From assembly GCA_034440375.1 (NCBI GenBank), contig JAWXBZ010000031.1, positions 1-17,924 on the forward strand: a stretch of DNA of 17,924 bases, given 5' to 3'. The translations under genes and the position numbers were made by a program. Positions 591 through 17,924 of this stretch are shown piece by piece. This stretch comes from Candidatus Eiseniibacteriota bacterium (GTDB lineage: Bacteria; Eisenbacteria; RBG-16-71-46; JABDJR01; JAWXBZ01). Every line of letters begins with the position of its first letter. The first letter of the stretch is position 1. The notes beneath the pieces were generated by a model. It was not told where the DNA came from. It saw nothing but the letters and a program-made list of their open reading frames with translations, and ran no database searches.

Positions 591-600
591 CCAAGACCCG

Positions 601-1821: not shown

Positions 1822-1828
1822 GGGCAGC

Positions 1829-3061: not shown

Positions 3062-3098
3062 CGACCCGAGCCTCTGCGCGCACGGTGCCGACCTCCCG

Positions 3099-4385
3099 AT
3101 GATATCCCCGCTTCAGGAGCGGCCGGTCGTGGTCACCGGGATGGGCGTCGCCTCGCCGATCGGCGTCGGACTGGCCGCTTTCCGGGAGGGGCTTCAGTCG
3201 GGACGGAGCGGCACGGGTCCGATCACGCAGTTCGATGCGTCCGATCTTCCGTGCCGGGTGGCGGGGGAAGTCCTGGATCCGCTTCCGAGTCTCGAAGATC
3301 TCATCGAGAAAAAAGTGCTTCGGGTGATGTCGCGGACGACGCGATTGGCGTTGGTGGCGGGGCGGGAAGCGCTTGTGCACGCCGGATTGATTTCCACGGG
3401 CGCCAACGAGTCGGCTGTCGCCGACTCGTTGGGAGTCTGGATCGGTACCGGCGGCGGCGGGGTCGGATGGGCCGAAGAGCAGTACGGCATCTATTTCCAG
3501 GAAGGGTGGCGCCGAACGAGCCCGCACGGCATCGTGGCGGCTCTGCCGGGAATGCTGTCGAGCGACCTCTCGGCCGCGTTTGGCGCGCACGGACCTTCTC
3601 ATGTCCTGTCGACCGGCTGCACGTCGTCGAGCGACGCCATTGCGTATGCGGCTCTGGCGGTGGCCATGGGGTGGTGCGATCGGGCGCTGGCCGGCGGGGC
3701 CGAAGCACCGCTGACGCACGGCATCGTGTCCAATTTCTGTCGGATGAAAGCGGTGTCGACTGCCTGGAACGATCAACCCGCGGCCGCCAGCCGGCCCTAC
3801 GACCTGCGGCGTGACGGATTCGTGCCGGGCGAAGGGGCCTGGTTCGTGGTGATCGAGCCTGCCGATCTGGCGGCCCAACGTGGTGCCCGGGCGCTCGCGC
3901 GCCTTAAGGGCTACGCCTCGACCTGCGATGCCCATCATCGGACCCGCAACCATCCCTCCGGTGCCGAAACAGCCCGTGCGATCCGGACGGCGCTGGAATC
4001 TGCCGGCGTATTGCCCGGAGCCGTCGGTTACGTGAACCTGCACGGCAGCGCCACACCGTTGAACGACCGGATCGAGAGCCTGGCCATGCACGCCGTTTTC
4101 GGAGAGGCCGCGCACCGGATACCGATGAGCGCGCTCAAATCGCAGATCGGCCATCCGCAGGGGGCTTCGGGGGCCGCCGGCCTCGTGGCCACGATCCTGG
4201 GGATGCATGGCAGCTTCATCCCGCCCACCATCAACTGCGACGAACCGGATCCCGATTGCAACCTGGATGTCGTTCCGCACCGCGCGCGTCCCCATCAATT
4301 CGAGGTGGCCGTGGTAAACGCCATCTCGTTCGGATCGAAGAACTCCGTGCTGGTCGTCACGGCACCGGACGGATCGACCCGGTGA
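3099..4385 (+). CDS. fabF: Beta-ketoacyl-ACP synthase II family (FabF-like, divergent), about 428 aa
   Basis: VVVTGMGVASPIG, catalytic Cys in STGCTSS, ASRPYDLRRDGFVPGEG, His in NLHGSATPLND, and KSQIGHPQGASG. Start placed at ATG 3099, just after dinB. Confidence 0.85.
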   Translation: MISPLQERPVVVTGMGVASPIGVGLAAFREGLQSGRSGTGPITQFDASDLPCRVAGEVLDPLPSLEDLIEKKVLRVMSRTTRLALVAGREALVHAGLISTGANESAVADSLGVWIGTGGGGVGWAEEQYGIYFQEGWRRTSPHGIVAALPGMLSSDLSAAFGAHGPSHVLSTGCTSSSDAIAYAALAVAMGWCDRALAGGAEAPLTHGIVSNFCRMKAVSTAWNDQPAAASRPYDLRRDGFVPGEGAWFVVIEPADLAAQRGARALARLKGYASTCDAHHRTRNHPSGAETARAIRTALESAGVLPGAVGYVNLHGSATPLNDRIESLAMHAVFGEAAHRIPMSALKSQIGHPQGASGAAGLVATILGMHGSFIPPTINCDEPDPDCNLDVVPHRARPHQFEVAVVNAISFGSKNSVLVVTAPDGSTR

Positions 4386-5584
4386 AACGCCTCACCGCCC
4401 GACTCGCGGCCCTCCTGTTCGGACTGTTGGTCGGAGTGGCCGCGCTCGAAATTGGCCTTCGTGTCATCGGCTGGTCGGCGCCGCGGCTGACGACGCACGA
4501 TCCGAACCGCGGCAAGGCCTACCGGCCCGGAATTCGATGGCATCAGGCGGAGGAAGGCGAGGCGGACATCATCATCAATCGATGGGGATTCCGTGATCGG
4601 GAGTGGACCCTGGTAAAGCCGCCGGGCACGGTGCGGGTGGCCCTGCTGGGCGATTCCTTCGTCGACGGCCTCCAGGTGCCGATTGATTCCACCTGGGCCC
4701 GCGAGGCCGAGCGCCGGCTGAACGCATGCCACGCCTTCGGCGATTCAACGGTGGAGGTGATGAACTTCGGCGTCTCCGGCTACGGCACGGCCCAGGAGCT
4801 TCAAACTCTCCGCCATGATGTCCACCGTTTCGCGCCGGACATCGTCGTGCTGTCATTCCTGCCCGGAAACGACGTGCGTGACAACGGTGTCCGGCTCCGG
4901 CGTGATCCCGGACGCCCCTATTTCACCTGCCACGATGACAGCCTGATCCTCGATCGGACATTCCAATCCTCGCACGGGCGGATGCCAGAGGGGGTGCGCT
5001 CCACCGGTTTGTTTCTTCTCGACCGGTCACGGGTGGCGCAGGCTGTCTACCGGATGCGCCTGCGCTCCCGCGAGCGGGCGCAACTCCAGTCGATCCACGA
5101 GCGCACCGACATCCTGGGCGACGCACCCCACCAGGAACTGGGCCTCGACAACATGGTCTTTCGACTTCCGGAGCATCCCGCCTGGATCGAGGCGTGGCAG
5201 GTCACCGATGCCCTGATCAACGCAATGAATCTCGAGAGCACCGCCCGGGGTGCCTCGTTTCTTGCCGTCACGATCTCGAGCAGCATCCAGGTTCACCCCG
5301 ACCGGGCGGTCCGCGAGGCGTTCATGACCACACTCGGCGTTGACAGTCTGTCGTATCCCGAGGAGCGGGTGGCCGCCCTGGGACGGGCGGAAGGATTTCC
5401 GGTCCTGGTGCTGGCCCCTCGGATGCTGGCCTTTGCGGAGTCGCGCCATGCCTGGCTGCACGGCTTCGCCAACACCCGACCCGGATACGGTCACTGGAAC
5501 GGACTCGGGCACCGGCTGGCCGGCGCCTGCCTGGCCGAGGCGCTGGCAGCCGGATTTGGCCGAAGAGCCTGTCCGGCCGAATGA
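4382..5584 (+). CDS. Membrane-anchored SGNH/GDSL hydrolase-family protein, about 400 aa
   Basis: The GTG start overlaps the fabF stop (GTGA). N-terminal TM ending in EIGLR; INRWGFRD; block I LGDSF; block II NFGVSGYG; block III GND; block V GHWNGLGH. Confidence 0.85.
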   Translation: MKRLTARLAALLFGLLVGVAALEIGLRVIGWSAPRLTTHDPNRGKAYRPGIRWHQAEEGEADIIINRWGFRDREWTLVKPPGTVRVALLGDSFVDGLQVPIDSTWAREAERRLNACHAFGDSTVEVMNFGVSGYGTAQELQTLRHDVHRFAPDIVVLSFLPGNDVRDNGVRLRRDPGRPYFTCHDDSLILDRTFQSSHGRMPEGVRSTGLFLLDRSRVAQAVYRMRLRSRERAQLQSIHERTDILGDAPHQELGLDNMVFRLPEHPAWIEAWQVTDALINAMNLESTARGASFLAVTISSSIQVHPDRAVREAFMTTLGVDSLSYPEERVAALGRAEGFPVLVLAPRMLAFAESRHAWLHGFANTRPGYGHWNGLGHRLAGACLAEALAAGFGRRACPAE

Positions 5585-5662
5585 TATGATGGTCGCCCGT
5601 CAACCCGTTCAAACATCGACACGGGACTGGACCGATCGATCACTCCTGCATGCGGACAACTG

Positions 5663-7558
5663 ATGAACATCCTCGGCCTATCAGCCTTTTATCATGACAG
5701 CGCCGCCTGTCTGGTCAAGGACGGGGTCCTGGTCGCCGCCGCACAGGAAGAGCGGTTCACCCGGGTCAAACACGACTTCCGGTTTCCGACCAGCGCCATC
5801 GACTACTGCCTGACCGAGGCCGGCATCACGCCGGAACAGGTCGACTACGTGGCGTTCTACGACAAGCCGCTCCTCAAGTTCGAGCGGCTGCTTGAAACCT
5901 ACATTGCGGTGGCGCCGTCCGGCTTCAAGCTGTTTCGGATGGGGATGCCGCTCTGGCTCAAGCAGAAACTCCATCTCCCCCGTGAAATGGACCGGGGGCT
6001 CGGCGGTCGTTACAAGGGGCGCTACGTCTTTCCCGAGCATCACGAATCGCATGCCGCCAGCGCTTTTTTCCCGAGCCCCTTCGACGAGGCGGCCATCCTG
6101 ACGCTCGACGGCGTCGGCGAGTGGGCCACGGGCTCCGTCGGCCACGGCGAGGGAAACAGGATTCGCCTGCTGAAAGAGATGCACTTCCCCCACTCGCTCG
6201 GCCTCCTCTACTCGGCCTTCACCTATTTCACCGGTTTCAAGGTGAACTCGGGCGAATACAAGCTGATGGGCCTGGCCCCCTACGGTCGGCCGATCTACGC
6301 CGACCTCATCAAGGACAACCTCCTCGACCTGAAGAGCGATGGCTCGTTCCGGATGGACATGTCGTACTTCGCCTTCCACCGCGACGACGTGATGACCTCC
6401 CCGAAGTTCGCGCGGCTTTTCGGCGGCCCGGCGCGCAAGGCCGAGGCCCCGCTGACGCAACGGGAAATGGATATCGCCGCCTCGATCCAGGAAGTCACCG
6501 AGGAGATCATGCTGCGCTCGGCGCGACACGCCCACGACCTGACCGGAAGCAGGAACCTGGTCATGGCTGGCGGCGTGGCGCTCAATTGCGTCGGCAATGG
6601 CCGAATTCTGCGGGAAGGGCCATTCGAGAACATCTGGATCCAGCCGGCGGCCGGCGATGCCGGCGGGGCGCTCGGGGCCGCCCTCTTCGTCTGGTACCAG
6701 CTTCTCGACCAGCCGCGCCAACCGGGCGGCCGGGACCAGCAACGCGGCTCGTTGCTGGGCCCCGACATCAAACCGGATGAGGTTCAGGAACTCCTCGATT
6801 CGGTCGGGGCGGTGTACCGCCGGATCGACGACGACGCGGAACTCGAGAGGACCGTGGCCGACCTCATCGCCAATGAAATGGTTGTCGGGCACGTGGCCGG
6901 CCGGATGGAATTCGGCCCGCGCGCCCTCGGCAACCGCTCGATCATCGGCGATGCACGCAGTTCGAAGATGCAGGCGACCATGAACTTGAAAATCAAATTT
7001 CGCGAGTCATTCCGTCCCTTCGCGCCGGTGGTCCTGCGGGAGGCGGTGGCCGACTGGTTTGACATGCGCCCCAACGAGGACAGCCCCTACATGCTCCTGG
7101 TGGCTCCGGTGCGTGCCGACAAGAGGGTGCCGGTCGACAACCCCGGGCCGTTTCGTGCCGACGAACCGGCGGCCGACAACGACCAACCGACGAGCGGCGC
7201 CGACGGCAAGGCCGCCTGGGGCATCGAACTCCTCAACGAAATTCGCTCGGTCGTCCCGGCGATCACCCACGTCGACTATTCCGCGCGGGTGCAGACACTG
7301 GACGAGGAGCGCCACGGACGGTTTTATCGGATTGTCCGGCGCTTCCACGAAGCCACGGGCTGCCCGGTGATCATCAACACCAGTTTCAATGTCCGGGGCG
7401 AACCGATCGTCTGCACGCCCCGCGATGCCTGGCGCTGTTTCATGGCCACTGATATGGATGCCCTGGTTCTCGATCGCTTCATTCTGCGGAAGTCGGAACA
7501 GCCGGAGCGGGCCGGGGTCGATCGGGATGCCTATCTCAAGGAGTTCAAGCTTGATTGA
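5663..7558 (+). CDS. O-carbamoyltransferase, NodU/CmcH/TobZ family (SxtI-like)
   Basis: LGLSAFYHDSAACL, EHHESHAASAF, DGVGE, EYKLMGLAPYG, GGVALNC, EFGPRALGNRS, FRESFRPFAP, NTSFNVRGEP. Confidence 0.95.
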   Translation: MNILGLSAFYHDSAACLVKDGVLVAAAQEERFTRVKHDFRFPTSAIDYCLTEAGITPEQVDYVAFYDKPLLKFERLLETYIAVAPSGFKLFRMGMPLWLKQKLHLPREMDRGLGGRYKGRYVFPEHHESHAASAFFPSPFDEAAILTLDGVGEWATGSVGHGEGNRIRLLKEMHFPHSLGLLYSAFTYFTGFKVNSGEYKLMGLAPYGRPIYADLIKDNLLDLKSDGSFRMDMSYFAFHRDDVMTSPKFARLFGGPARKAEAPLTQREMDIAASIQEVTEEIMLRSARHAHDLTGSRNLVMAGGVALNCVGNGRILREGPFENIWIQPAAGDAGGALGAALFVWYQLLDQPRQPGGRDQQRGSLLGPDIKPDEVQELLDSVGAVYRRIDDDAELERTVADLIANEMVVGHVAGRMEFGPRALGNRSIIGDARSSKMQATMNLKIKFRESFRPFAPVVLREAVADWFDMRPNEDSPYMLLVAPVRADKRVPVDNPGPFRADEPAADNDQPTSGADGKAAWGIELLNEIRSVVPAITHVDYSARVQTLDEERHGRFYRIVRRFHEATGCPVIINTSFNVRGEPIVCTPRDAWRCFMATDMDALVLDRFILRKSEQPERAGVDRDAYLKEFKLD

Positions 7559-7991
7559 CCTGAATCTCCGCCCGGACCGAAAGCTGCTCCGGGGATTCGG
7601 CTGGATCGCCCTGGGATTCTTCGGACTGCTGGGCGGGGTCGTCTACTGGAAGAAGTCGATCGTCGGCATCCACCTCGGGCCAGATACCACCCGGCTCGTG
7701 GCCGGCCTGCTCTGGGGCGTCGGCGGCATCTCGGGGCTGTTGTCCCTGGTACGGCCGGAGTGGAATCGATTCCTCTTCATCGGCATGTCCCTTGTGGCCT
7801 TCCCGATCGGCTTCGTCATCTCCCACCTGATCCTGGTCCTGATCTACTTCGGAATCATGACGCCGATCGGCCTCCTCTTCCGGCTGATCGGGCGGGATGC
7901 GCTCAACCGCCGACTCGACCGGGCCGCCGAAACCTACTGGATCGACCGGAAGCCCGTGAAGTCGGTGGAGCGCTACTTCCGCCAGTTCTGA
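7551..7991 (+). CDS. SxtJ-family membrane protein, about 146 aa
   Basis: TTG start with an AAGGAG SD 7 nt upstream, overlapping the carbamoyltransferase stop. LRGFG and the C-terminal YFGIMTPIGLLFRLIGRDAL...TYWIDR...RQF are characteristic of the family. Confidence 0.85.
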   Translation: MIDLNLRPDRKLLRGFGWIALGFFGLLGGVVYWKKSIVGIHLGPDTTRLVAGLLWGVGGISGLLSLVRPEWNRFLFIGMSLVAFPIGFVISHLILVLIYFGIMTPIGLLFRLIGRDALNRRLDRAAETYWIDRKPVKSVERYFRQF

Positions 7992-8003
7992 GACGGAGGA
8001 GAA

Positions 8004-8035
8004 GAGGCCCCGGAGGTTCGCACCTCCGGGGCCTC
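8004..8035. terminator. Probable bidirectional terminator hairpin between convergent genes
   Basis: Perfect 14-bp stem GAGGCCCCGGAGGT/ACCTCCGGGGCCTC with a 4-nt loop (GCGA, a GNRA loop, on the minus strand). U-tracts are weak. Confidence 0.7.
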
Positions 8036-8060
8036 GACTGCTCTCTTGATCAGGTGACTC

Positions 8061-10316
8061 TTAGCGGGTGCCGCCGAAGCCTTCGGTGCCACCGCGGTTC
8101 AGAACCACCTTCTGGTTCTTGATGACGCCATCGGCCTGCAGCTTGAAGAAGTAGAAGCCGCTGGGGGAGACGACGCCGCCGTCGCTGCGACCATCCCAGG
8201 TGACGCTGTGCGAGCCGGCATCCTGGACGCCGTCGAGCAGCGTGGCCACCTTGCGGCCCTGAATATCAAAGACAGCCAGGTGAACCGCACGGGACTGGCT
8301 CAGAGAAAATTCGAGGGTGGTGGAAGCATTGAACGGATTCGGGCGCGCACCGCGCAGCTCGGCGATGACCGGCCGGGAGCTGGCCGGCTCGAGGTTGATC
8401 GATCCGAGCCACTTGGTGATGCCGGAGCGCTCGACTTCCTGGAGCCAGTAGGTGGCGCCATCTTCCGGTGCCCCCTCGTCGACGAACTCGTACTCCGTGC
8501 GGCCGGACAGAATGCCGACGTTCAGGATGACACGGGCGCCGCCTTCGGTCTCGCGGAAGATGTTGAAGCCGAGATGATCATGCTCTTCAGTAACCGTCCA
8601 TGAGAGCTTCGCGCCGTTGCCTTCGCGAACGGCCTCGAACCTTGCCAGGACCACCGCAACCGCCTGGCAGCCATCCGGCAGGCCATTGCGGTCGTCATCC
8701 ACGTAATAGCTGACCGCACGCGTCCACCAGCGGCCGTCTTCGGTGACAGTGCCGACTGTCGTCGGGGTACCAGTCGTTCCGGCGTACTCGTGATAAGACC
8801 AGAAAATGCACGCATCCGGATCGACCACGGTGGCGCTGTAATCGCCCCAGCGATTGCGGGCGGCCGTGTTGCTGCTGAACGTACGGCGATAGAACGCATT
8901 GCCGCTGGCATACACCGTCAGCGGATTCAGGAAGCCCGGAGGATCAGCCGCCGAGCGGGTCGTGTAGGCCGCGCTGGCAAACGTCGTGGGGGAACCGATG
9001 CCGACGCAGATGGCCATGTTGCCCAGCTTGTCGACGCCGATACTCGGATAGTTGGTCCATGCGGAGACGCTGACTTCTTCGCCGCCGATATCACCCTGGT
9101 CCACCACAGTCCCCGCGCCGGTGGTGATGGCTTCCTTCACCCAGTGGGCGGTGTTCTGCCCGGCATTGACGCCGACCGGGGGATTCACATGAAAGACGCC
9201 GTAAATGTGCCCGTTCCGCCAGAGCGCCGCCAGGCAGCGCCGGTCACCGGTGTCGATGCGCGTGGCGGTGTTGATGCTGCCCGGCTGGTTGCCGCGGGGA
9301 AGGGTGCCCGAAGCGATATCGATGTCACCCATGGCCGCCTGATCACCCGTGAAAACGGGGACTCCGGTCGGATTGTCGACCCGAATGGTCTGGAAGAACT
9401 CGAGACCGCCGATGCCGGGAGCAGATGTCAGGCCGGAGTAGAGGCACAGGTACGTTCCTACGCCCACGGGCGGGGTACCGAACATCTGGGCCGGCTGCAT
9501 CGTGCTGTTCGGGAAGCCGCTGGCCGCGGCCGCGTCGAACGGCGAGCCGGGATTGAGCGTCAACGCGCCGCCGGAATAGAACGGCGCCTTGTTGAGGATC
9601 CAGAGGCGTGAAGCGGCACCCATGGTGCCCGGGTAGTTGAAGTAGTTACCGGTCACATAAATGACGTTCTGGTCGCAGGCCAAGCCCGGATAGTCGAACC
9701 AGTAGTCCGTTCCCGCGATGTTGATTTCCGAGTTGATCGCGGAAAAATACCAGGTGCCGTTCGGGTCGCTGTCATCTGACACCGCGAAGAGGAGCCTCGA
9801 TGTCATGGTGGCACCGCCGACCTGCTCCAGGGCCACCACGAAGAAGCGACCGCTGTACTGGTCGTAGATGATCTTCGGGTCGAACAGAGCGTTGACCGGA
9901 GTCAGCGAGTTGAAAAATGCATTGGTGATGGTGGCCACCTGCTTGCCGAGCGGCTGCTGGTTCTGCGGCGCGCCGCCGGTCTTCAAGTACCACTGGATCG
10001 AACAGTTCACGATCGTGACGATATGGTTCGGCCCAACGGCCGCGTGCGGATCGGGCGGAATGAAGAGGAATCCGCCATTCAGGGCCGGCATCTCTTCGAA
10101 CTTCACGCTCTCGATCGTATTCTGCTGGACGGCCGGCAGATCCGTATCCTCGGCACCGAGAACGCCGACATTGAAGCCCCATTCGGCGTTTCCATCGATG
10201 CCCGGCTCGTAGTTGTAACCATCGAGCTCAGGCGTCGCGACCGGTGGACCGGCCACGGCTGCGGAAAACGCAACAAGCGTTCCCGCGACGATTCCGAAAA
10301 GTACCCTTTTCTTCAT
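8061..10316 (-). CDS. Secreted protein (751 aa) with an uncharacterised N-terminal domain and a C-terminal FlgD-Ig/T9SS type-A-like sorting domain
   Basis: Signal peptide MKKRVLFGIVAGTLVAFSAAVA; motifs PPDPHAAVGPNHIV, FDPKIIYD, DYP and RWGDYS; DDDRNGLPD; C-terminal PNPFNASTTLEFSL...VFDIQGRKVATL...VTWDG...SGFYFFKL. GGGGG SD upstream. Confidence 0.85.
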   Translation of the reverse strand: MKKRVLFGIVAGTLVAFSAAVAGPPVATPELDGYNYEPGIDGNAEWGFNVGVLGAEDTDLPAVQQNTIESVKFEEMPALNGGFLFIPPDPHAAVGPNHIVTIVNCSIQWYLKTGGAPQNQQPLGKQVATITNAFFNSLTPVNALFDPKIIYDQYSGRFFVVALEQVGGATMTSRLLFAVSDDSDPNGTWYFSAINSEINIAGTDYWFDYPGLACDQNVIYVTGNYFNYPGTMGAASRLWILNKAPFYSGGALTLNPGSPFDAAAASGFPNSTMQPAQMFGTPPVGVGTYLCLYSGLTSAPGIGGLEFFQTIRVDNPTGVPVFTGDQAAMGDIDIASGTLPRGNQPGSINTATRIDTGDRRCLAALWRNGHIYGVFHVNPPVGVNAGQNTAHWVKEAITTGAGTVVDQGDIGGEEVSVSAWTNYPSIGVDKLGNMAICVGIGSPTTFASAAYTTRSAADPPGFLNPLTVYASGNAFYRRTFSSNTAARNRWGDYSATVVDPDACIFWSYHEYAGTTGTPTTVGTVTEDGRWWTRAVSYYVDDDRNGLPDGCQAVAVVLARFEAVREGNGAKLSWTVTEEHDHLGFNIFRETEGGARVILNVGILSGRTEYEFVDEGAPEDGATYWLQEVERSGITKWLGSINLEPASSRPVIAELRGARPNPFNASTTLEFSLSQSRAVHLAVFDIQGRKVATLLDGVQDAGSHSVTWDGRSDGGVVSPSGFYFFKLQADGVIKNQKVVLNRGGTEGFGGTR

Positions 10317-10739
10317 AACTGCCCCCGGGGGTGGGATCTTGCGGTTGACCGTTCCCGGATGGGAACAATCAGCGACCAGAACAGAACAGAAACTGGATTT
10401 GGAATTTCGGAATGACGGTGGGAATGCCGGTTGGTGCCGGACAAGTGACGGGCCCTCCGCGATGTCGATCAGGCTGCACCCGGTTGAGCCACAAAGCCTA
10501 ACGGAACGGGTGAGCGGCGTTCAGGACGTTGTATGGGCCGAACTCAATCGAGGAATGGACCGGCGGGAGGTCCGCATGCGACAACCCCGTGGAAATGCCC
10601 CGAAGGAGGAGAAGATTAGCACCTTGTGGCAACGGATCATCCCTTTTTCCTGTCCCATCCCACATTTTTCAGGACCCCGTAAGTTGCTCCGGAATTCAGG
10701 CGCCCGGCCTAAATTGTGTCCTCAATCCCTTGGCGCCTA

Positions 10740-10745
10740 TATAAT
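10740..10745 (+). promoter_or_regulatory. Consensus -10 box TATAAT, 6 nt before the ATG; probable leaderless promoter
   Basis: TATAAT-GTGCCC-ATG(10752), with no SD. Confidence 0.55.
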
Positions 10746-10751
10746 GTGCCC

Positions 10752-10952
10752 ATGCCAAACCCGCCCGGTGGAGACGACTTCCGCAAATTGGCCGAGTCCC
10801 CCCGCACGGGCTTCCTGGCCGAATTCTTCGGATTTCTCCGACAGAACCGCAAGTGGTGGATGCTGCCCATGTTGGCGGTGATCCTCCTGCTCGGGGCCCT
10901 CGTCCTCCTTGGCGGAACGCCGCTGGCGCCGTTCATTTATACCCTCTTCTAA
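10752..10952 (+). CDS. DUF5989 / SxtK-family small membrane protein, 66 aa
   Basis: The family signature FLAEFFGFLRQNRKWWMLP...LAPFIYTLF; this family usually accompanies SxtJ and a carbamoyltransferase. Confidence 0.9.
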   Translation: MPNPPGGDDFRKLAESPRTGFLAEFFGFLRQNRKWWMLPMLAVILLLGALVLLGGTPLAPFIYTLF

Positions 10953-10959
10953 TCGCGGA

Positions 10960-12747
10960 ATGAAACGGGCGGATCCGACGAGGGCGGAGCGGCGATCGAA
11001 CCGACCCGGCAGTCTCGGATTACCTTCGGTTGTCTGGCTGGTGGTTGCCATTGCGGCCTCATTCCTCCTGCATGCACGAGCGATCAACCACCCCTGGATA
11101 TCGGACGACCATGTCATTCTGAAGGACAATCCGACGCTCCGCCGCACCGAAGCCTCAACGCCCCTGCGGCTGATCGGCCTGGACTACTGGTCGGCCCTCG
11201 ATGCCGAAGGTCGCGCCTTTCCCCTGGTCGGCGATCGTAATCTGTACCGCCCGGCCACGACCATTTCCTACTGGATCAACGCGCGGTTGACCGGCATCAC
11301 GCCCGCCGGTCTCCGATCCGGAAATGTCCTGCTTCACGGCCTCGCCGCCGGCATCCTGGGACTGCTTTGCGCCGCGCTCTTTGGCGGACCCGCGGGATTG
11401 CTGGCCGGAGCCGCCGTACTGGCCCATCCCGTGGGAACCGACGTCATCAATCGAATCGTCGGGAGAGCCGATATCCTCGTGCTCGTCGGGATCGCCGGTT
11501 TCCTGCTCGTGGCGCGGCCGATCCCGGGGCGTGGCTGGTCTCCATTTCGGGTCGCGGCTGCCGCGCTCCTGGCATTGACCGCCCTCGGCGCCAAGGAGAC
11601 GGGGCTGGCACTCCTGCCGATTGCGGCCCTGCAAGCCTGGTTGAGCCGTCCCCCGGGAGCCCCCTGGGATCGGGTCCGCTGGATCGGCCCGGCCATCGCC
11701 CTCTCGGCCGGGATTCTGGTCCTCGGAGCACGCACCGCCTTCGTCGGCTGGCCGCGCTATGACCCGGTGCCCGGACTCGACCTGTTGATGAACCCCCTTT
11801 CGGGAATGGGATGGCTCGAACGATTGCCGGCCGCTCTTTCGCTCGGCTCCTGGTATGTCCAGCTTCTCGTCGCGCCCTGGCCGCTCTTGACGCTCGATCG
11901 GCCGGCGCGGCTTCCGGACTGGGGCTCACCAACGGTCTGGATCGGAGCGGTTGTCCTGGCGGGTATGCTCCTCCTTCTCATTCGTTCGGTGCGACGCCGT
12001 CACTTTTGGGGCCTCGCTGCCGTTTGGTGGCTCGCGATGTTCGCCCTCGTCGGCCAGATCCTCGCGCCGATCGGCACCTACCGGGAAGTGCGGATCGTGT
12101 ACCCCTTTCTCGGCAGCCTGGCCCTGGGGCTGGCCGGCGCATTCGCCCTGGTGCGGCCGCCGTGGCGTGGACCGGCCCGCGCCGCGGCAGCGATCGGCGT
12201 GGGCCTGCTGATGGTCCTCACCATCATCCGCACCGACAATTACGGCTCGGAAGTGGCTCTGTATGAAGCCGATGTCCGACACCACCCGGACTCACCGTTG
12301 ACGCATCTCATGCTTGGCGTCGTCTACAGCGAGGCCAATCGCGCAGGCGATGCGCGACGCGCGCGCGAAACGGCATTGAGCCTGGCCCCCGACTCGCCGC
12401 AAGCCCTGAACGAGGTGGCGGCCCTCGAGGTTCAGGCCGGCAACTTCCCCCGGGCGGAGGAACTGCTGTCGAAGGCACTGACCCTCGAGCCGCGACACAG
12501 CGTGGCCCTGATGAACCTGGGCAATCTTCGAGCCCAGCAGGATCGCCTGGAGGAGGCTCACGCGCTGTTGCTGCGTTCCGAAAGGCTGAACCCGGCTTAC
12601 AGCCTGATCCAGGTGAATCTCGCCCTGGTGGAGGCCCTTCTCGGGCGTCCGGCCGACGCGCTCCGGCGCGCCGACCTCCTTGGTCGCCAGAACCCGAATG
12701 ACCCCAACGTTGCGGCTATCCGGCGACTGGCAGGAGGCGCTCGTTGA
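10960..12747 (+). CDS. TMTC-like GT-C membrane glycosyltransferase with C-terminal TPR repeats, about 595 aa
   Basis: SDDHVILKDNP, LYRP, NVLLH, AHP...VGRAD and AKE, multiple TM segments, then about four TPR-like repeats. Starts 7 nt after the DUF5989 stop. Confidence 0.8.
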   Translation: MKRADPTRAERRSNRPGSLGLPSVVWLVVAIAASFLLHARAINHPWISDDHVILKDNPTLRRTEASTPLRLIGLDYWSALDAEGRAFPLVGDRNLYRPATTISYWINARLTGITPAGLRSGNVLLHGLAAGILGLLCAALFGGPAGLLAGAAVLAHPVGTDVINRIVGRADILVLVGIAGFLLVARPIPGRGWSPFRVAAAALLALTALGAKETGLALLPIAALQAWLSRPPGAPWDRVRWIGPAIALSAGILVLGARTAFVGWPRYDPVPGLDLLMNPLSGMGWLERLPAALSLGSWYVQLLVAPWPLLTLDRPARLPDWGSPTVWIGAVVLAGMLLLLIRSVRRRHFWGLAAVWWLAMFALVGQILAPIGTYREVRIVYPFLGSLALGLAGAFALVRPPWRGPARAAAAIGVGLLMVLTIIRTDNYGSEVALYEADVRHHPDSPLTHLMLGVVYSEANRAGDARRARETALSLAPDSPQALNEVAALEVQAGNFPRAEELLSKALTLEPRHSVALMNLGNLRAQQDRLEEAHALLLRSERLNPAYSLIQVNLALVEALLGRPADALRRADLLGRQNPNDPNVAAIRRLAGGAR

Positions 12748-12766
12748 CCTCGGCGCGTGACGTGCA

Positions 12767-12775
12767 TGCTAAAGT
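12767..12775 (+). promoter_or_regulatory. Extended -10 box (TGC-TAAAGT), 6 nt before the ATG; probable leaderless promoter
   Basis: TGCTAAAGT-TTGGCC-ATG(12782), with no SD. TTGACC lies upstream at 12744-12749. Confidence 0.5.
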
Positions 12776-12781
12776 TTGGCC

Positions 12782-13360
12782 ATGACGATGACCCGCGAGG
12801 ACAACCTGGAGCTGGTGCGGGAATACACGACGAATCCCGGCCTGATCAAGCACATGATTGCGGTTGAAGCCGCCATGAGGGCGATGGCGCGGGCCCGCGG
12901 CGAGGATCCCGAGCTCTGGGGAGCCGTCGGACTCTTGCACGACTTCGACTACGAACGCTGGCCGGACTTGACGGATCACACCGTCAAGGGCGCGGAGATA
13001 TTGCGTCTTCGTGGTTATCCCGAGGTCATCGTTCGCGCCATTCTCACGCACAATGACCACAATGGCCTGAATCTGCCCCGCGAATCCCCGCTCGAAACGG
13101 GACTGGCGGCCTGCGATGAACTTTGCGGTTTCATTACGGCCGTGACGCTGGTCCGCCCCGGGAAGAATATCGAGGAAGTCACCGCCGATTCGGTCCTGAA
13201 GAAGCTGAAGGACAAGGCCTTCGCCCGGCAGGTTAACCGTGAGGAGATCCGCCACGGGGCGGAGGCCTACGGCGTCGACCTCCGGGAACACATCAGTTTT
13301 CTCATTGACGCGCTCAAGCCCGCAGCCGTCGAGCTCGGCCTCGACGGTTCCGCGGCCTAG
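12782..13360 (+). CDS. HD-domain (HDIG-type) metal-dependent phosphohydrolase, about 192 aa
   Basis: KHMIAVEAAM, GLLHDFDYE, HTVKGAEIL, AILTH, ACDEL, KKLKDKAFA. Confidence 0.9.
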   Translation: MTMTREDNLELVREYTTNPGLIKHMIAVEAAMRAMARARGEDPELWGAVGLLHDFDYERWPDLTDHTVKGAEILRLRGYPEVIVRAILTHNDHNGLNLPRESPLETGLAACDELCGFITAVTLVRPGKNIEEVTADSVLKKLKDKAFARQVNREEIRHGAEAYGVDLREHISFLIDALKPAAVELGLDGSAA

Positions 13361-13399
13361 CCGATCTTACTTACCTGCGCCGACCGGAGTTCACCGCGG

Positions 13400-14887
13400 A
13401 TGACACGCCCAACGACTCTCGGAAGCCTGCGCGCTTCCGGTTACAACGATCTGACGGTCAAACAGGAAATGCGGCGAAACCTCCTCGCTTTCCTCAAGTC
13501 CGGCGAAATTCTCTTTCCAGGCATCATCGGCTATGACCGCACGGTCATCCCGCAGCTGGTCAATGCCATCCTGTCGAAGCACGACGTCATTCTCCTCGGC
13601 CTGCGGGGCCAGGCCAAGACGCGCCTGCTTCGCGGCCTGACGCGCTTCCTGGATGAATTCATTCCGGTGGTGTCCGGCAGCGAGATCAACGACCATCCGT
13701 ACCATCCGGTTTCGGCGCTCGGCCGCCGCACGTTGTCGGAACTCGGCGACGCCACCCCCATCGACTGGATTCATCGCGATCTCCGGTATCACGAGAAACT
13801 GGCCACGCCGGACGTGACGATCGCCGACCTGATCGGCGACATCGATCCCATCAAGGCCGCCTCGAGAAAGCTCGACTTCTCGAATGAAGAGGTCATCCAT
13901 TACGGCCTCGTTCCCCGGGCCAATCGTGGCATCTTCGCCATCAACGAACTACCGGACCTGGCACCCCGCATCCAGGTGGGCCTGCTCAATGTCCTGCAGG
14001 AAAAGGACGTCCAGATTCGCGGCTTCGACGTCCGCCTGCCGCTCGACGTGGCCATCGTCTTTTCGGCCAACCCGGAGGATTACACCAACCGCGGCAGCAT
14101 CATCACCCCGCTCAAGGACCGGATCGACAGCCAGATCATGACGCACTACCCGGAGGATCTGGCGACGGCCCTGGCCATCACCAACCAGGAAGCCTGGCTC
14201 GAGCGGGATGCGGGATCGAGACTCGTCGTCCCGGATTGGCTGCGCGAGATCATCGAGGAGATCGCGTTCCAGGCGCGCGACAGCGACTATGTCGACCAGA
14301 ACTCCGGCGTCTCGGCGCGCCTGTCGATCACCGCGCTGGAGAACGTTCTGTCGAACATGGAGCGGCGGGCGCTGAAGACGGGCGACAATCCGGTCGTGGC
14401 GCGAATCGCCGACCTCCAGGCGGCCGTTCCCTCGCTGACCGGCAAGATCGAACTGGTGTACGAGGGGGAACAGGAAGGGCCGATAAAGGTGGCCAAACAC
14501 CTGATCGGCCGGGCGGTCAAGGAAATCTTCGAGAGCCACTTCCCGCCGGCCCACCGCGGCAAGAAAAGCGCGGAAAAGGAAGAGGTGGCCACGAGCCCGT
14601 ACCGAAAGATTGTCGATTGGTTCAGCCAGGGGAAGAAGCTGGAAATCGGAGACGACGACCCGGCGGCCGACTACTTTGCCGCGCTGAACAAAGTGCCGGG
14701 CCTCAAGGATGCGGCTGTCAAGTTCACCGGCAGCGAAGACCCCGACCTGCTGGCCCCGACCATGGAGCTGATTCTCGAAGGGTTGCACCAGAGCGCCATC
14801 CTGGCCAAGGAAGAACTCGAGGGGCAGGTCCGATTCCTGGACATGTTCCAGACGATGCTTTCCAACCTCGGCGATCCGAAGCGCTGA
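13400..14887 (+). CDS. Mg-chelatase-subunit-like AAA+ ATPase (Rv0958-like family)
   Basis: Walker A GLRGQAKT, EKLATPD, ADLIGDIDPIKAA, Walker B variant IFAINELPDL, SANPEDYTNRG, and arginine finger PLKDR. Confidence 0.9.
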   Translation: MTRPTTLGSLRASGYNDLTVKQEMRRNLLAFLKSGEILFPGIIGYDRTVIPQLVNAILSKHDVILLGLRGQAKTRLLRGLTRFLDEFIPVVSGSEINDHPYHPVSALGRRTLSELGDATPIDWIHRDLRYHEKLATPDVTIADLIGDIDPIKAASRKLDFSNEEVIHYGLVPRANRGIFAINELPDLAPRIQVGLLNVLQEKDVQIRGFDVRLPLDVAIVFSANPEDYTNRGSIITPLKDRIDSQIMTHYPEDLATALAITNQEAWLERDAGSRLVVPDWLREIIEEIAFQARDSDYVDQNSGVSARLSITALENVLSNMERRALKTGDNPVVARIADLQAAVPSLTGKIELVYEGEQEGPIKVAKHLIGRAVKEIFESHFPPAHRGKKSAEKEEVATSPYRKIVDWFSQGKKLEIGDDDPAADYFAALNKVPGLKDAAVKFTGSEDPDLLAPTMELILEGLHQSAILAKEELEGQVRFLDMFQTMLSNLGDPKR

Positions 14888-14906
14888 GCGGTCAGCCACA
14901 TCACCC

Positions 14907-15992
14907 ATGAAATTTCGCTACTCCGAATGGGATGACGCGCTGGCGGACATGCTCCGCCAGTTCGAGACGCTTCGCTCCCTCTTCAACCATCTCCTCCTTC
15001 AGACGGACGGCGATGTGGAGGAGGCATTCCGATGGCTCGAATTCCTGAAGCAGAAAGGTATCCTGCCGCCCGGCTTCGATCTGGATGCTTTCCGCGCCGA
15101 AATGGAGAAGCAGGACATCATCCGCCAGGAAGGCGATCGGGCTGTCCTGACGAAGAAGGGTGAGCGCAGCATCCGTCAGGAAAGCCTTGACCTGATCTTT
15201 GGCCAGCTTCGGAAAGGCGCCGGAGGCGAACATCGAACCAGCCACACCGGCGAAGGGAGTGAGACGCTCCCCGAAAGCCGCGCCTACGTTTTTGGCGATT
15301 CGATTGCCGACCTCGACCAGATCCAGACGATCCGTTCGGCTCTGCGCCACGGCCTGGACGACATCAACATCACCGAGGATGACCTGCAGGTGCACGAAAA
15401 AGAGATGAGGACCAGCGTGGCCACCGTCCTTTGCCTCGATATCAGTCACAGCATGATCCTGTACGGTGAGGATCGCATCACGCCCGCGAAACGGGTGGCT
15501 CTGGCGCTGTCCGAGCTGATCCTGACCCGCTATCCCAAGGACAGCCTCGATATTCTGCTCTTCGGCGACGACGCGCGCGTCGTCCCACTTGAGGAACTGA
15601 CCTACAGCGGTGTCGGCCCGTACCACACCAACACCAAGGCCGCCCTGCAGCTGGCCCAGCGAATTCTGCGAACGAAGAAGCATGTCCAGAAGCAGATTTT
15701 CATGATCACCGACGGCAAACCCTCCGCCATGTTCGAGGAGGGACGCCTCTACAAGAATTCAATTGGCCTGGACCCTAAAATCGTCAACCGAACACTGGAC
15801 GAGGCCGTGGCCTGCCGCCGCAAGAACATCGCGATCACCACGTTCATGGTGGCCCAGGACCATGCCCTGGTCGAGTTCGTCGAGGAAATGACGCGCCTCA
15901 ACAAGGGACGGGCGTATTACACCGGCCTCGATAACCTCGGCGGATACGTCTTCGCGGACTTCGTCAGGAACCGCCGTCGCGTCGTCCGCTGA
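14907..15992 (+). CDS. von Willebrand factor A domain protein, partner of the AAA+ ATPase
   Basis: MIDAS motif DISHS, GPYHTNT and MITDGKP; directly downstream of the ATPase gene. Confidence 0.9.
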   Translation: MKFRYSEWDDALADMLRQFETLRSLFNHLLLQTDGDVEEAFRWLEFLKQKGILPPGFDLDAFRAEMEKQDIIRQEGDRAVLTKKGERSIRQESLDLIFGQLRKGAGGEHRTSHTGEGSETLPESRAYVFGDSIADLDQIQTIRSALRHGLDDINITEDDLQVHEKEMRTSVATVLCLDISHSMILYGEDRITPAKRVALALSELILTRYPKDSLDILLFGDDARVVPLEELTYSGVGPYHTNTKAALQLAQRILRTKKHVQKQIFMITDGKPSAMFEEGRLYKNSIGLDPKIVNRTLDEAVACRRKNIAITTFMVAQDHALVEFVEEMTRLNKGRAYYTGLDNLGGYVFADFVRNRRRVVR

Positions 15993-16218
15993 CGGTAGTT
16001 TTGTCCCGATTCGGGAGATCCTTCCCGATTGCGCCCATCGGGTGCCTCCTCTGCGAACGGCCCGTTCCGGCCATCTGAACATCGGCACGCGCCGCCGATC
16101 CCCGTAAGCCCAAGGGGAGCCACGCCCCGGTACGACCTTGCCCTCAACACCCCCGCCGTCGCACGATTTTTGCATGACCATCGAATATAGCCCGAATCGG
16201 GCCCGTTTGGGAGGAACC

Positions 16219-16452
16219 ATGAACACGTGCGATGTGTGCGGAAACACCTACGACAGGACATTCGAAGTGATCCAGGACGGCAAACGACATGTCTTCGACA
16301 GCTTTGAGTGCGCCATCCATGCCTTGGCACCCATCTGCGCCCATTGCAGCTGTCGTGTCATCGGACACGGGGTGCAGGACGAGGCAGACATCTACTGCTG
16401 CGTCCACTGTGCCGAAACGAGCGGCGTGACAGGTCTGCGTGATCGGCAATGA
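16219..16452 (+). CDS. Small Cys/His-rich metal-binding protein (metallothionein-like, tandem TRASH-like), 77 aa
   Basis: Strong GGAGG SD. CDVCGN...FDSFECAIH...CAHCSC...GHG...YCCVHC; 9 Cys and 5 His. Confidence 0.85.
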   Translation: MNTCDVCGNTYDRTFEVIQDGKRHVFDSFECAIHALAPICAHCSCRVIGHGVQDEADIYCCVHCAETSGVTGLRDRQ

Positions 16453-16472
16453 AAAATGAAGGAGGAGCGCCC

Positions 16473-16892
16473 ATGACAGTACGAGAAGTGATGACGAGCC
16501 ACACGGAAATGGCAACGCCCGACATGAGCCTGCGCGACGCGGCCCGGTTGATGCGCGATTGCGATATCGGCGCCCTTCCGGTCGGGGATAAGGACCGACT
16601 GGTGGGAATGATCACCGACCGGGATATTACGATTCGCGCGGTGGCCGAAGGGATGGACGTCGAGGCAACTCAGGTTCGCGAGGCAATGACCAGCAAGTTC
16701 CTGTACGTCTTCGACGACGAACTGATCGAGTCGGCGGCCCAGAAGATGGCAGATCTCCAGGTGCGACGGTTGCCGGTGCTTGATCGCAGCGAACACCTGG
16801 TCGGAATCCTGGCGCTCAGCGATGTTTCGATCGAGGGACCTCAGAAAGCTGCCGCTCACGCGTTGCGGGGCGTATCCGAACCATCGGACTGA
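16473..16892 (+). CDS. Stand-alone CBS-pair protein (YhcV/Hrp1-like), 139 aa
   Basis: AAGGAGG SD. VREVMT, AARLMRDCDIGALPV, LVGMITDRDI, QVRRLPV, LVGILALSD. Confidence 0.92.
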   Translation: MTVREVMTSHTEMATPDMSLRDAARLMRDCDIGALPVGDKDRLVGMITDRDITIRAVAEGMDVEATQVREAMTSKFLYVFDDELIESAAQKMADLQVRRLPVLDRSEHLVGILALSDVSIEGPQKAAAHALRGVSEPSD

Positions 16893-16908
16893 CTGATGTT
16901 GACGTCCA

Positions 16909-16936
16909 CCGACCCCGCCATCCCCGGCGGGGTCGG
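16909..16936 (+). terminator. GC-rich hairpin after the CBS gene; possible terminator
   Basis: Perfect 11-bp stem CCGACCCCGCC/GGCGGGGTCGG with a 6-nt loop, followed by AT-rich sequence but no U-tract. Confidence 0.5.
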
Positions 16937-16991
16937 AATATGATGTAACAGTTGCCACCGAAGGTAGTACCCAGCTTCCAACCAGTTGCAA

Positions 16992-17005
16992 TGTAAACGA
17001 TTACA
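16992..17005. promoter_or_regulatory. TGT-N8-ACA palindrome; candidate binding site for an enhancer-binding protein
   Basis: TGTAA-ACGA-TTACA, about 165 bp upstream of the predicted sigma54 start. A degenerate copy, TGTAACAGTTGCCA, lies at 16944-16957. Confidence 0.4.
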
Positions 17006-17099
17006 GGATCCAATCGCCCGGGATGGATACCTGATTCCCGAAATCGTAAACAGGCCTGCCTCCCCCGGGGACTCGGTCATTTGACGATCCGGTGAGCAT

Positions 17100-17112
17100 T
17101 TGCAAGCACTTA
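17100..17112 (+). promoter_or_regulatory. IHF-like site
   Basis: TTGCAAGCACTTA versus consensus WATCAANNNNTTR (2 mismatches), lying between the palindrome and the sigma54 box. Confidence 0.35.
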
Positions 17113-17138
17113 CAGCGTTCTCGGAACCCGTCTCCTCG

Positions 17139-17155
17139 TTGGCATGATCGGTGCC
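17139..17155 (+). promoter_or_regulatory. sigma54 (-24/-12) promoter
   Basis: TTGGCATGATCGGTGCC has the exact GG-N10-GC spacing; predicted +1 is near 17166. Confidence 0.55.
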
Positions 17156-17165
17156 TATACCTAAC

Positions 17166-17591
17166 CCTGCAAGCGAGGCTCAGCCGGGCCGAGGGAGACA
17201 ACCAGCACTCCGGTTGCAAACGTCAAATCTCCAACCCCGGCAAGGCTACTGATGGTGTCCAGGCAGCCATCATCAGGACGCCTCTTGCGACCTCCGTCGA
17301 ACGAGGTTCGGTTGAGTCCCGTATTCAAGTTCCGCCCCGCGGAACAAGTGTTTGAAAAACTTGGCGGGTCGTAACCATAGAGTTGGTTCCCTGACGTGCT
17401 GTGTTCGGTTCTGCCGGTTCACAGTCCTCAAAGCCTGGGGATGCCTCCCAATAGGTTTGAGATCCAGGCCGGCTGCGGTTCGTCAGGGAACCGTCAATAT
17501 CCCTGAGGGGGGGATCGCGCGACCAAGAGTCCTCAAGCCCGCTCTTGTTCGCCGTAGGGGCGGCTCCGCAAGGAGCCGCCCCAGTTTTTTT
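17166..17591 (+). ncRNA. Candidate structured non-coding RNA (or long regulatory leader), family not recognised
   Basis: Bounded by a sigma54-like promoter and a strong terminator, with about ten hairpins including a 108-nt irregular stem-loop, and no convincing ORF. The 5' end is inferred. Confidence 0.5.
17557..17591 (+). terminator. Rho-independent terminator
   Basis: Perfect 11-bp stem GGGGCGGCTCC/GGAGCCGCCCC with a GCAA tetraloop, followed by AG and T7. Confidence 0.9.
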
Positions 17592-17768
17592 GGTTGATAG
17601 TTCCGGATCAGAAAAAATAGTCTAATTAATTGTAAGCAAATAAGTTAGCAATGAGCCCAACACGCCGAGTCAACTCTCCGTCAACCCCGTGGATCGACAT
17701 TCCCCCTGCTGACGGGTCGAGCCTCGACCCGCCTCCGCAAGTGAGAACAGTCTGGAGGAGAGTTGATC

Positions 17769-17924
17769 ATGATGACGTTGCGAACGATCACCCCATGGAT
17801 GCTGGCGGCAGCTCTGCTCGCCGGTGCGTCAACCCGGGCCGAAGCCTGGCGCGATGATGACGGCAACAAGATTGACGATTCGATCGACCAGGTACAGTCG
17901 AGCGGCTGGGCCTGGGCCTTTGAA
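17769..17924 (+). CDS. Secreted protein, N-terminal fragment; runs off the right edge
   Basis: Not in the ORF track. GGAGGAG SD, then MMTLRTITPWMLAAALLAGASTRAEA|WRDDDGNKIDDSIDQVQSSGWAWAFE: a signal peptide with an AxA cleavage site followed by an Asp-rich, Ca-binding-like motif. Confidence 0.75.
   Translation, partial: MMTLRTITPWMLAAALLAGASTRAEAWRDDDGNKIDDSIDQVQSSGWAWAFE

Follow-up and report, generated by a model that had tools for sequence, protein, structure and literature searches.

A predicted sigma-54-controlled gene for a structured noncoding RNA in one order of Candidatus Eisenbacteria

The stretch of DNA considered here, called the window throughout, spans 17,924 nt of a Candidatus Eiseniibacteriota genome (GenBank assembly GCA_034440375.1, contig JAWXBZ010000031.1, positions 1 to 17,924 of the forward strand). 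Near its downstream end, positions 17166-17591 had been proposed by an earlier sequence-only reading, made without database searches, to encode an independently transcribed RNA of an unrecognized class with its own promoter and terminator. Comparison of homologues supports this proposal, because a predicted sigma-54 promoter, its enhancer sites and the terminator are conserved, the stems covary, no Rfam family matches the region and no open reading frame (ORF) is conserved across it. We read the + strand of 17166-17591 as a stand-alone gene for a highly structured noncoding RNA (ncRNA) of about 425 nt, preceded by a putative enhancer pair and sigma-54 promoter and closed by a terminator, and put the probability of this reading at roughly three in four. 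That the locus holds an independent structured ncRNA gene driven by sigma-54 is, in our judgment, very likely. The features of the locus are collected in Table 1.

Table 1. Predicted features of the RNA gene and its control region, in window coordinates.
Feature	Position	Strand	Description
Distal upstream activating sequence (UAS)	16955-16975	+	Degenerate GGRTA-N5-TAYCCA palindrome; the window keeps the right half only (GTACCCA)
Proximal UAS	17022-17042	+	TGGATA-N5-TTCCC in the window
Sigma-54 promoter	17140-17154	+	TGGCAT (17140-17145; GG of the -24 element at 17141-17142), five bases, GTGC (17151-17154; GC of the -12 element at 17153-17154)
RNA gene	17166-17591	+	About 425 nt, from the start expected from promoter geometry to the end of the terminator U tract
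5′ block AGCGAG	17172-17177	+	Identical in 20 of 21 homologues; AACGAG in L047 (alignments A4 and A6)
Helix P3	17213-17291	+	17213-17217 pairs with 17287-17291; encloses the J block and hairpin P4
Junction block J	17228-17241	+	UCUCCAACCCCGGC; core CUCCAACCCC invariant (A4 and A6)
Hairpin P4/P4a	17242-17283	+	10-nt loop at 17258-17267
Variable region	17290-17380	+	Lineage-specific hairpins; length and sequence vary between homologues (A4 columns 150-262)
Long helix P5	17384-17493	+	Closes the multi-branched 3′ domain; encloses P8 and the invariant GGGAUGCCUCCC (17438-17449)
Hairpin P10	17499-17515	+	AUCCC/GGGAU with loop UGAGGGG; within the invariant block AUCCCUGAGGGGGGGAUCG; identical in 21 of 21
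P11/P12	17516-17556	+	P11: 17516-17521 with 17550-17554; P12: CAAGAGU 17524-17530 with GCUCUUG 17541-17547
Intrinsic terminator	17557-17591	+	11-bp stem, GCAA loop, U tract

The stems that the sequence-only reading had listed between 17199 and 17552 are present. When inverted repeats were checked by script, seven of the eight short stems agreed exactly with the positions it had given; the eighth span, 17519-17552, begins with GCGA and ends with TCGC, and within it CAAGAG stands at 17524 and CTCTTG at 17542. Twelve perfect base pairs, GGTTCCCTGACG with CGTCAGGGAACC, close the long stem at 17385-17492. The minimum free energy of the + strand (17166-17595) was -191.9 kcal/mol, compared with -160.2 ± 6.3 kcal/mol for 100 dinucleotide shuffles (z = -5.03), and none of the 100 shuffles folded as well, in line with the structured RNA that had been proposed. 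The - strand had a z of -3.00, and two homologues of the RNA gave -4.98 and -4.53.

Homologues could be gathered from related genomes and metagenomes, as the sequence-only reading had suggested doing, and 21 distinct full-length sequences of 380-446 nt (the window's RNA, eight from the genomes of relatives and 12 from metagenome contigs; alignment A4) form the basis of the comparisons below. Among 61 related genomes, blastn gave matches in 10, including the window's own (G000). Eight of these are true relatives, namely G001 from the window's family (f1) and G002-G008 from a sister family (f2); five of their records are titled Candidatus Eisenbacteria or Eiseniibacteriota and three uncultured bacterium. 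The shared stretch covered 17415-17592 at 87% identity in G001 and 17433-17561 at 77-88% identity in f2, and a more sensitive local blastn also aligned G001 at 17137-17270. A 26-nt match in G040 was discarded, since it comprises the terminator hairpin only and neither of the covariance models described below finds the RNA there. An exact scan of genome contigs for an 18-nt invariant motif returned 19 loci, eight of them the known relatives; the other 11 carry none of the RNA's remaining motifs and were set aside as chance matches. A gapped two-motif scan of metagenome contigs returned 14 loci, all with the full architecture; among them are one duplicate and one locus whose RNA is identical in sequence to the window's. 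Promoter, terminator and invariant blocks are kept in all 21 homologues.

The distribution of the RNA was assessed with a covariance model for each domain (R1, 3′; R2, 5′); both were roughly calibrated and run with stricter Infernal filters, so that an absence means that the RNA was not found in the genomes searched. In a sample of 151 genomes from the class, R1 detected it in 9, as it also did in a sample of 151 from the phylum; R2 picked out the same 9 of 151. By family, matches came from the single f1 genome and from seven of eight f2 genomes, in addition to G000, and from none of 16 other families; the only f2 genome without a match is 75% complete. Each genome carries one copy. Among the genomes searched, the RNA is restricted to one order of Candidatus Eisenbacteria.

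The structure was derived with RNAalifold on nine and then on 21 sequences, together with R1 and R2. At the 5′ end, the AGCGAG block sits in f2 within a GAAGC/GCUUC stem-loop domain, the stem of which is found in 18 of the 21 sequences and is missing in f1. Helix P3 encloses an invariant junction, CUCCAACCCCGG. The P4 loop contains AGGCAGC in all 21 sequences and the fuller GAGGCAGC in 20 of them, the window having CAGGCAGC. The variable region of the window is made up of stems at 17290-17307, 17312-17328, 17329-17345 and 17345-17363. Within P5, helix P8 is formed by 17432-17436 with 17453-17457. Towards the 3′ end, the invariant stretch able to form the local hairpin P10 is AUCCCUGAGGGGGGGAUCGCGCG, and the loop of P12 carries an invariant AAGCCCG (17535-17541).

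Covariation among relatives, on which the proposal of a structured RNA had been made to depend, was found in both domains. For the 5′ domain (plain MAFFT alignment A4), 17 of 26 pairs changed on both sides, against 5.3 ± 1.5 after shuffling, and none of 500 shuffles reached that count; controls in which the pairing was slid gave 1-7 pairs, and 97.1% of cells were paired compared with 30-47% in slid controls. Changes on both sides affected 5 of 6 pairs in P3 and 12 of 15 in P4/P4a. For the 3′ domain (model-fitted alignment A5), the corresponding figures were 15 of 47 pairs against 6.7 ± 1.7, again with none of 500 shuffles reaching the count, 5-10 pairs in slid controls, and 95.5% of cells paired compared with 36-50%. 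Here the both-side changes in the P5 region fell on helix 1 (6 of 11 pairs) and helix 2 (5 of 6 pairs). Helices 7 and 8 of A5, which correspond to P11/P12, were 99-100% paired and almost invariant, and helix 6 (P10) never varies; P9-P12 therefore carry no covariation information. As far as the alignments tell, a multi-helix fold is kept by compensatory changes, with invariant blocks between the helices.

Some pairs of invariant blocks show mutual complementarity. The GAGGCA of the P4 loop is complementary to the invariant UGCCUC within the P5-enclosed GGGAUGCCUCCC, which makes the two a candidate kissing contact. For the J core CUCCAACCCC there are two candidate partners. One is the invariant G run of P10 at 17506-17512, as suggested by RNAalifold; the other is a near-perfect complement, GGGGUUGGA-like, located 38-44 nt past the P4 loop motif in 12 of the 21 homologues, weak in the window (17300-17318) and absent in L009, L047, L050 and L051. 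Pairing of CUCCAACCCC with the GGGGUUGGA-like segment could form a pseudoknot with P3, or could be an alternative pairing that excludes it. A further candidate is a long-range GCGA/UCGC pairing put forward by RNAalifold, the outer pair of which (A4 columns 13 and 422) is broken without compensation in L047 and L007; the remaining long-range pairs from RNAalifold show no variation.

The 3′ boundary is set by a strong terminator, which the sequence-only reading had noted at about 665 nt past the last gene. That gene, a CBS-domain gene at 16449-16892, does end 665 nt before the terminator and, as also noted, has a hairpin of its own at about 16911-16936. The terminator hairpin (17557-17582) consists of 11 pairs, 10 of them G-C, around a 4-nt loop and is followed by AGTTTTTTT, with seven T. 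It is the only terminator-like site in 16400-17924; shuffles of this region give 0.8 ± 0.9 sites, and the terminator is therefore notable for its strength and not for the count. A hairpin and a T run occupy this position in each of the 21 homologues. The stem sequence is family-specific with its pairing kept, GGGGCGGCUCC/GGAGCCGCCCC in f1 and GGGGCACCCG/CGGGUGCCCC in f2.

At the other end, the start at 17166 given by the sequence-only reading coincides with the position predicted from the putative sigma-54 -12 element. The motif TGGCA[CT]-N5-[TGA][TA]GC has one match, at the corresponding place, in each of the nine genome copies. With a looser eleventh position ([TGAC][TA]GC, that is, TGGCA[CT]-N5-NWGC), the promoter motif is present in all 14 metagenome copies as well, and in all of these genome and metagenome copies it is a single motif about 20 nt ahead of the first conserved block of the RNA. 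The gene for sigma-54 itself (rpoN, PF04552) is present in one copy in each of five genomes, which have 19-29 Sigma54_activat matches each and 118 in total. The locus combines several features of sigma-54-dependent regulatory RNAs: a -24 GG and a -12 GC at the right distance from the RNA 5′ end, rpoN in the genome and predicted UAS.

These UAS were sought with an iterated position-weight matrix, with offsets counted from the start of TGGCAC and the best 21-mer taken within a 65-nt zone, a choice that is biased towards a find. Two sites with the consensus GGgTA-N5-GTAcCCAc were obtained at constant offsets in all 21 homologues. Their starts lie at -196/-129 in f2 and in the majority of the remaining sequences, at -185/-118 in f1 (distal site at -185/-186), and at -181/-115 in one metagenomic clade, the L039 group (distal site at -181/-182; -182 in L046). 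The spacing between distal and proximal site is 63-68 nt throughout, and the pair is situated about 100-195 bp upstream of the sigma-54 promoter. The distal site of the window has a low matrix score, 10.8 compared with about 20 in f2. Constant positions within DNA that is otherwise unalignable are real evidence for the predicted enhancer sites. In addition, six of ten genomes of the order contain a single match each to the strict pattern GGRTA-N5-TAYCCA-N(50-72)-TAYCCA, always ahead of the RNA gene, and the reversed control pattern has no match; the four genomes without a strict match are G000 and G001, where the sites are degenerate, G008, and G009, which is 75% complete.

Other elements of control were looked for around the RNA gene and across the genomes. 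A composite pattern of an enhancer half-site and a promoter recovered the RNA gene in six genomes and gave three extra matches (G003:C14, G005:C7 and G008:C19) compared with four in the control. The three are sigma-54 promoters without the enhancer pair (best scores 2.9-7.5 versus about 20) and were dismissed as further regulon members; the composite pattern yielded no other, and G000 was not scanned genome-wide with the enhancer matrix. An IHF consensus (WATCARNNNNTTR, opposite strand) was found in only 4 of the 21 copies (L008, L040, L041 and L051), at -51 to -53 from the promoter and hence between enhancer and promoter, and is too weak for an IHF site to be claimed.

Apart from the RNA gene, one locus of G003 deserves mention. 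At L068 (G003:C14, about 409350-409500), no obvious start codon is seen in the roughly 115 nt that come after a sigma-54 promoter (TGGCACACGCGTTGC), and a G-rich/C-rich hairpin with a T run closes this stretch. The locus has the look of another RNA gene, small and driven by sigma-54.

Searches against Rfam 15 (4227 covariance models) at gathering thresholds gave no match in the window and none in the loci of the eight relatives, and the RNA belongs to no catalogued family there, as the sequence-only reading had supposed. When the window region was searched in E-value mode, only sub-threshold matches appeared, to BjrC68 (25.2 bits versus a gathering threshold of 39), H19_2 and COG2827; two homologues searched at E ≤ 1 gave none. 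The H19_2 and COG2827 matches lie over the enhancer region upstream of the RNA and do not recur in the two homologues, and the BjrC68 match is confined to the last hairpin and the terminator and is likewise not shared by them; all three were discarded. The region had also been said to lack the hallmarks of RNase P RNA and tmRNA, and indeed the above-threshold matches to RNase P, 6S and tmRNA (RF00010, RF00013 and RF00023) in G001, G002, G003 and G006 are all at other loci. In G000, RNase P RNA (RF00010) was not found, while it is present in four of four relatives, and the tmRNA match is truncated where contig C35 ends. These gaps are most likely assembly gaps (264 contigs, 93.7% complete).

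RNA libraries from four studies contain close relatives of the RNA. In an index search, 16 runs recorded as RNA, from 13 studies in all, held 5-14% of the sampled words. Four runs from four studies were aligned, and gave short contigs of 151-243 nt at a depth of 2-5 on 17139-17590. Three of the runs are 95-99% identical to the window over 17364-17511, 17399-17563 and 17180-17321; the fourth is more distant and tiles the whole RNA. No contig from the four runs covers 16900-17138 or 17600-17924, which is uninformative, since the flanks of the relatives diverge and depth is low.

The genes around the RNA differ between genomes and between the two families. In both f1 genomes, a set of HD-domain, AAA+ ATPase and VWA genes lies just upstream of the RNA (12776-15992 in the window; 8920-12187 of L053, minus strand), and in the window alone the additional CBS-domain gene is placed between this set and the RNA. 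The AAA+ protein (13400-14887) was considered as an adjacent activator and rejected: it has a weak, partial Sigma54_activat match only, stands beside a VWA protein, shows no GAFTGA motif by eye and looks to be of the Mg-chelatase/MoxR type. In f2, hsp20 or dnaK, or both, lie about 0.5-3 kb upstream of the RNA on the opposite strand in seven of seven genomes. Long ORFs antisense to dnaK at five f2 loci (L054, L056, L057, L058 and L059) match PF10712, 'NAD-specific glutamate dehydrogenase', with E-values down to 1e-195, and L060 has a true Hsp70 match on the strand opposite to the PF10712-type ORF. We take PF10712 ('NAD-GH') to be the known spurious family antisense to dnaK, and its matches show that in f2 the RNA has hsp20-dnaK as its divergently oriented neighbour upstream. 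Shared control with hsp20-dnaK was rejected, as no sigma-54-like promoter points towards hsp20 within 3.5 kb at six f2 loci. Downstream, the window has a gene starting at 17769; its product opens with a sequence resembling a signal peptide, and the 52 residues that fall within the window match no Pfam family. Relatives have TonB_C (G003 and G008) or CDP-alcohol phosphatidyltransferase (G002 and G005) genes, and in G001 and G006 the sole downstream ORF with a Pfam match encodes an outer-membrane beta-barrel protein on the opposite strand. Because its neighbours vary in this way, the RNA is best seen as an independent unit and not as an attenuator.

Several observations count against a stand-alone, sigma-54-controlled RNA gene. 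The promoter of the window (TGGCAT...GTGC) and its enhancer sites match more weakly than those of f2, the strict enhancer pattern has no match in G000 and G001, and no activator gene is found within about 30 kb of the RNA among the 118 Sigma54_activat matches of the five genomes. The 21 sequences are related, and the shuffle counts are accordingly not probabilities; alignment A5 was fitted to the model's own structure and leans towards it; and the proposed long-range contacts are beyond the reach of covariation because all of them involve invariant sequence. The RNA-library matches are assembled contigs from libraries in which DNA can be present, and they show presence and not ends, strand or abundance; moreover, the end contigs of the fourth run overshoot the RNA by 51 and 59 nt, and these extensions do not resemble the window. 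Exact complements of the RNA of at least 12 nt occur in G000 at chance level only. The best complement to an invariant block, 14 nt on contig C52, falls within a dehydrogenase gene, at its 3′ end, and was rejected as an antisense target.

Three other readings account for part of these observations. The window ORFs 17092-17355 and 17352-17597, or a 21-codon frame from the invariant AUG of GGGGAUGCC (at 17441), might encode one or more small proteins. Stop-free frames of at least 60 codons exist in every copy, and most copies contain ones of 60-145 codons; which frame is open, where and on which strand nevertheless shifts from copy to copy, and neither window ORF has a Pfam match. Conservation peaks where all three codon positions are invariant, the best-conserved block contains indels of 0, 1 and 2 nt (A4 columns 426-429 and 456-459), variation tracks base pairing instead of codons, and the sequence past the invariant AUG is not conserved as protein by eye. 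No conserved small ORF of the kind that would have overturned the sequence-only reading is seen across the homologues, and we regard a coding function as the least credible of the explanations. Hardly more credible is a sponge that titrates a protein, as CrcZ does Hfq or CsrB/RsmZ do CsrA. The sigma-54 promoter and the length of about 400 nt recall CrcZ, and the f2 copies have one A-rich linker. AANAANAA, however, does not occur in 20 of the 21 homologues, GGA is found 6-11 times per copy, equal to the 7-10 predicted from composition, and Hfq (PF17209) was detected in none and CsrA (PF02599) in one of five genomes that are 93-100% complete; with both proteins largely missing, a sponge of the CrcZ or CsrB type is unlikely. 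The sequence-only reading had itself offered a second possibility, a very large attenuator acting on the secreted-protein gene at 17769, that is, a cis-acting leader whose sigma-54 transcripts would stop at or read through 17557-17591 and so control the downstream gene. Such a role is compatible with the shared strand of RNA and next gene in the window, G002, G003, G005 and G008, and with a terminator that could in principle be bypassed. It conflicts with the downstream gene, which is not conserved among genomes and is on the opposite strand in G001, with an 11-bp terminator stem of which 10 pairs are G-C and for which no conserved disrupting pairing or anti-terminator was seen in alignments judged by eye, and with a 177-nt spacer (17592-17768) in the window that is AT-rich (51% G+C versus 64% for the whole window) and carries a sigma-70-like promoter, TTGATA-16-AATAGT at 17594-17621, probably that of the gene starting at 17769. 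A single linked downstream gene family together with an alternative to the terminator, as expected for a riboswitch or attenuator, was not observed, and this explanation, too, is very improbable.

We prefer to see the RNA as a trans-acting regulator, a role to which we give about even odds. RNA polymerase with sigma-54 stays closed on the promoter until an ATP-dependent enhancer-binding protein opens it. By this established mechanism, an activator oligomer bound to the two palindromes would open the promoter, and the RNA would be made only once the activator has received its signal. Because the f2 enhancer pair occurs only ahead of the RNA gene, a dedicated activator seems to serve chiefly, or solely, to produce the RNA. 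By analogy, the arrangement looks like a dedicated activator-to-RNA circuit with the logic of CbrB-CrcZ, GlrR-GlmY and LuxO-Qrr. How the RNA would act is less well supported: it may work in trans, with the covarying helices serving as a rigid scaffold that presents CUCCAACCCC, GAGGCAGC, GGGAUGCCUCCC, CCCUGAGGGGGGGAUCGCGCG and the AAGCCCG loop to a protein or to other RNAs and mRNAs. The invariant elements displayed in this manner would be C-rich and G-rich. Hfq and CsrA are unlikely partners.

The foremost rival to a trans-acting regulator holds that the RNA is a ribozyme, binds a ligand or forms a ribonucleoprotein core, that its main job is not regulation by pairing or titration, and that sigma-54 control merely limits it to one condition. 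Its complexity would then be on a par with that of OLE, ROOL, GOLLD or raiA. At about 425 nt the RNA has at least 10 helices and multi-way junctions, its longest invariant stretches are in junctions and loops while the helices covary, and the invariant blocks are mutually complementary (GAGGCA with UGCCUC, and CUCCAACCCC with G runs), a pattern typical of tertiary contacts; Hfq and CsrA are, besides, mostly absent. Weighed against this, no protein gene is consistently linked to the RNA, it has no likeness to any Rfam family, and tight control by sigma-54 and an enhancer is typical of regulatory RNAs, which makes this rival rather unlikely in our view. Equally tentative is the idea that the RNA founds a new class of large, tertiary-folded bacterial RNAs, like OLE, ROOL or raiA, in which invariant loops (GAGGCA with UGCCUC, and CUCCAACCCC with a G run) would lock into a compact particle with a biochemical activity or a role as ribonucleoprotein core, its synthesis gated by a dedicated sigma-54 enhancer switch. 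If true, the RNA would be one piece of a lineage-wide wiring in Eisenbacteria of sigma-54 activators to structured RNAs instead of protein operons.

Whichever role applies, the comparisons identify the locus as a genuine gene for a structured RNA, one with clear boundaries, absent from earlier catalogues and under predicted sigma-54 control. Full-text literature searches for Eisenbacteria with RNA or sigma-54 terms returned no paper describing the RNA; the one paper found with both "Eisenbacteria" and "noncoding RNA" (PMC10434106) concerns a soil co-assembly. With two enhancer sites, a sigma-54 promoter and a terminator, the set of control elements that can be read at the locus is unusually complete, which makes the RNA directly testable even though the organisms are uncultured. 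A circuit in which a sigma-54 activator drives an RNA, as in Proteobacteria and Myxococcus, would by these predictions extend to a distant, uncultured phylum. In that phylum Hfq was not found (none of five genomes) and CsrA is mostly missing, and a different downstream mechanism is therefore implied.

The nearest known parallel is CrcZ, which depends on sigma-54, is about 400 nt long and is encoded next to cbrB. The sequence-only reading had brought up CrcZ as a precedent while seeing neither similarity to it nor its repeats; the parallel holds for the type of promoter and breaks down for the AANAANAA repeats, absent from 20 of 21 copies, and for Hfq. CrcZ and CrcY of Pseudomonas, controlled by CbrB, are like the Eisenbacteria RNA in being ncRNAs of about 400 nt with an enhancer-dependent sigma-54 promoter and their own terminator, and in being the main output of their pathway. 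The RNA described here has, in contrast, no similarity to them in sequence or structure and no repeated A-rich Hfq motifs; its activator gene is not adjacent, and its conserved fold is far more elaborate. Two papers describe crcZ and crcY as antagonists of Hfq and Crc (PMC5113210, PMC4063720).

A second group of parallels, controlled by GlrR in the case of GlmY and by LuxO in that of Qrr1-5 and including Pxr of Myxococcus, shares the sigma-54 promoter with UAS, the terminator-capped ncRNA and the small regulon centred on an RNA. GlmY, Qrr1-5 and Pxr are about 85-185 nt long, with simple folds and known partners (Hfq, RapZ). That LuxO together with sigma-54 is required for Qrr1-5 is stated in a preprint (bioRxiv 10.1101/2021.07.01.450815). 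The Eisenbacteria RNA is two to four times longer than the RNAs of this group. BjrC68 of Bradyrhizobiaceae (RF02353) is similar through its sub-threshold cmscan match over 17510-17591, where a hairpin precedes a GCAA-looped terminator; as the match is below the family threshold and confined to the last 82 nt, it amounts to a generic hairpin-plus-terminator likeness.

In size and intricacy, the closest counterparts are OLE, ROOL, GOLLD and the raiA motif, which were recognized by comparative analysis before any function was known. Like them, the RNA exceeds 350 nt, has many covarying helices and invariant junctions and loops, and has a narrow or patchy range; it differs in that no Rfam 15 family matches it, and we know of no sigma-54 promoter with a dedicated enhancer for any of the four. 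Intricate conserved bacterial ncRNAs of more than 350 nt are rare, and OLE, ROOL, GOLLD and raiA pointed to unexpected biology.

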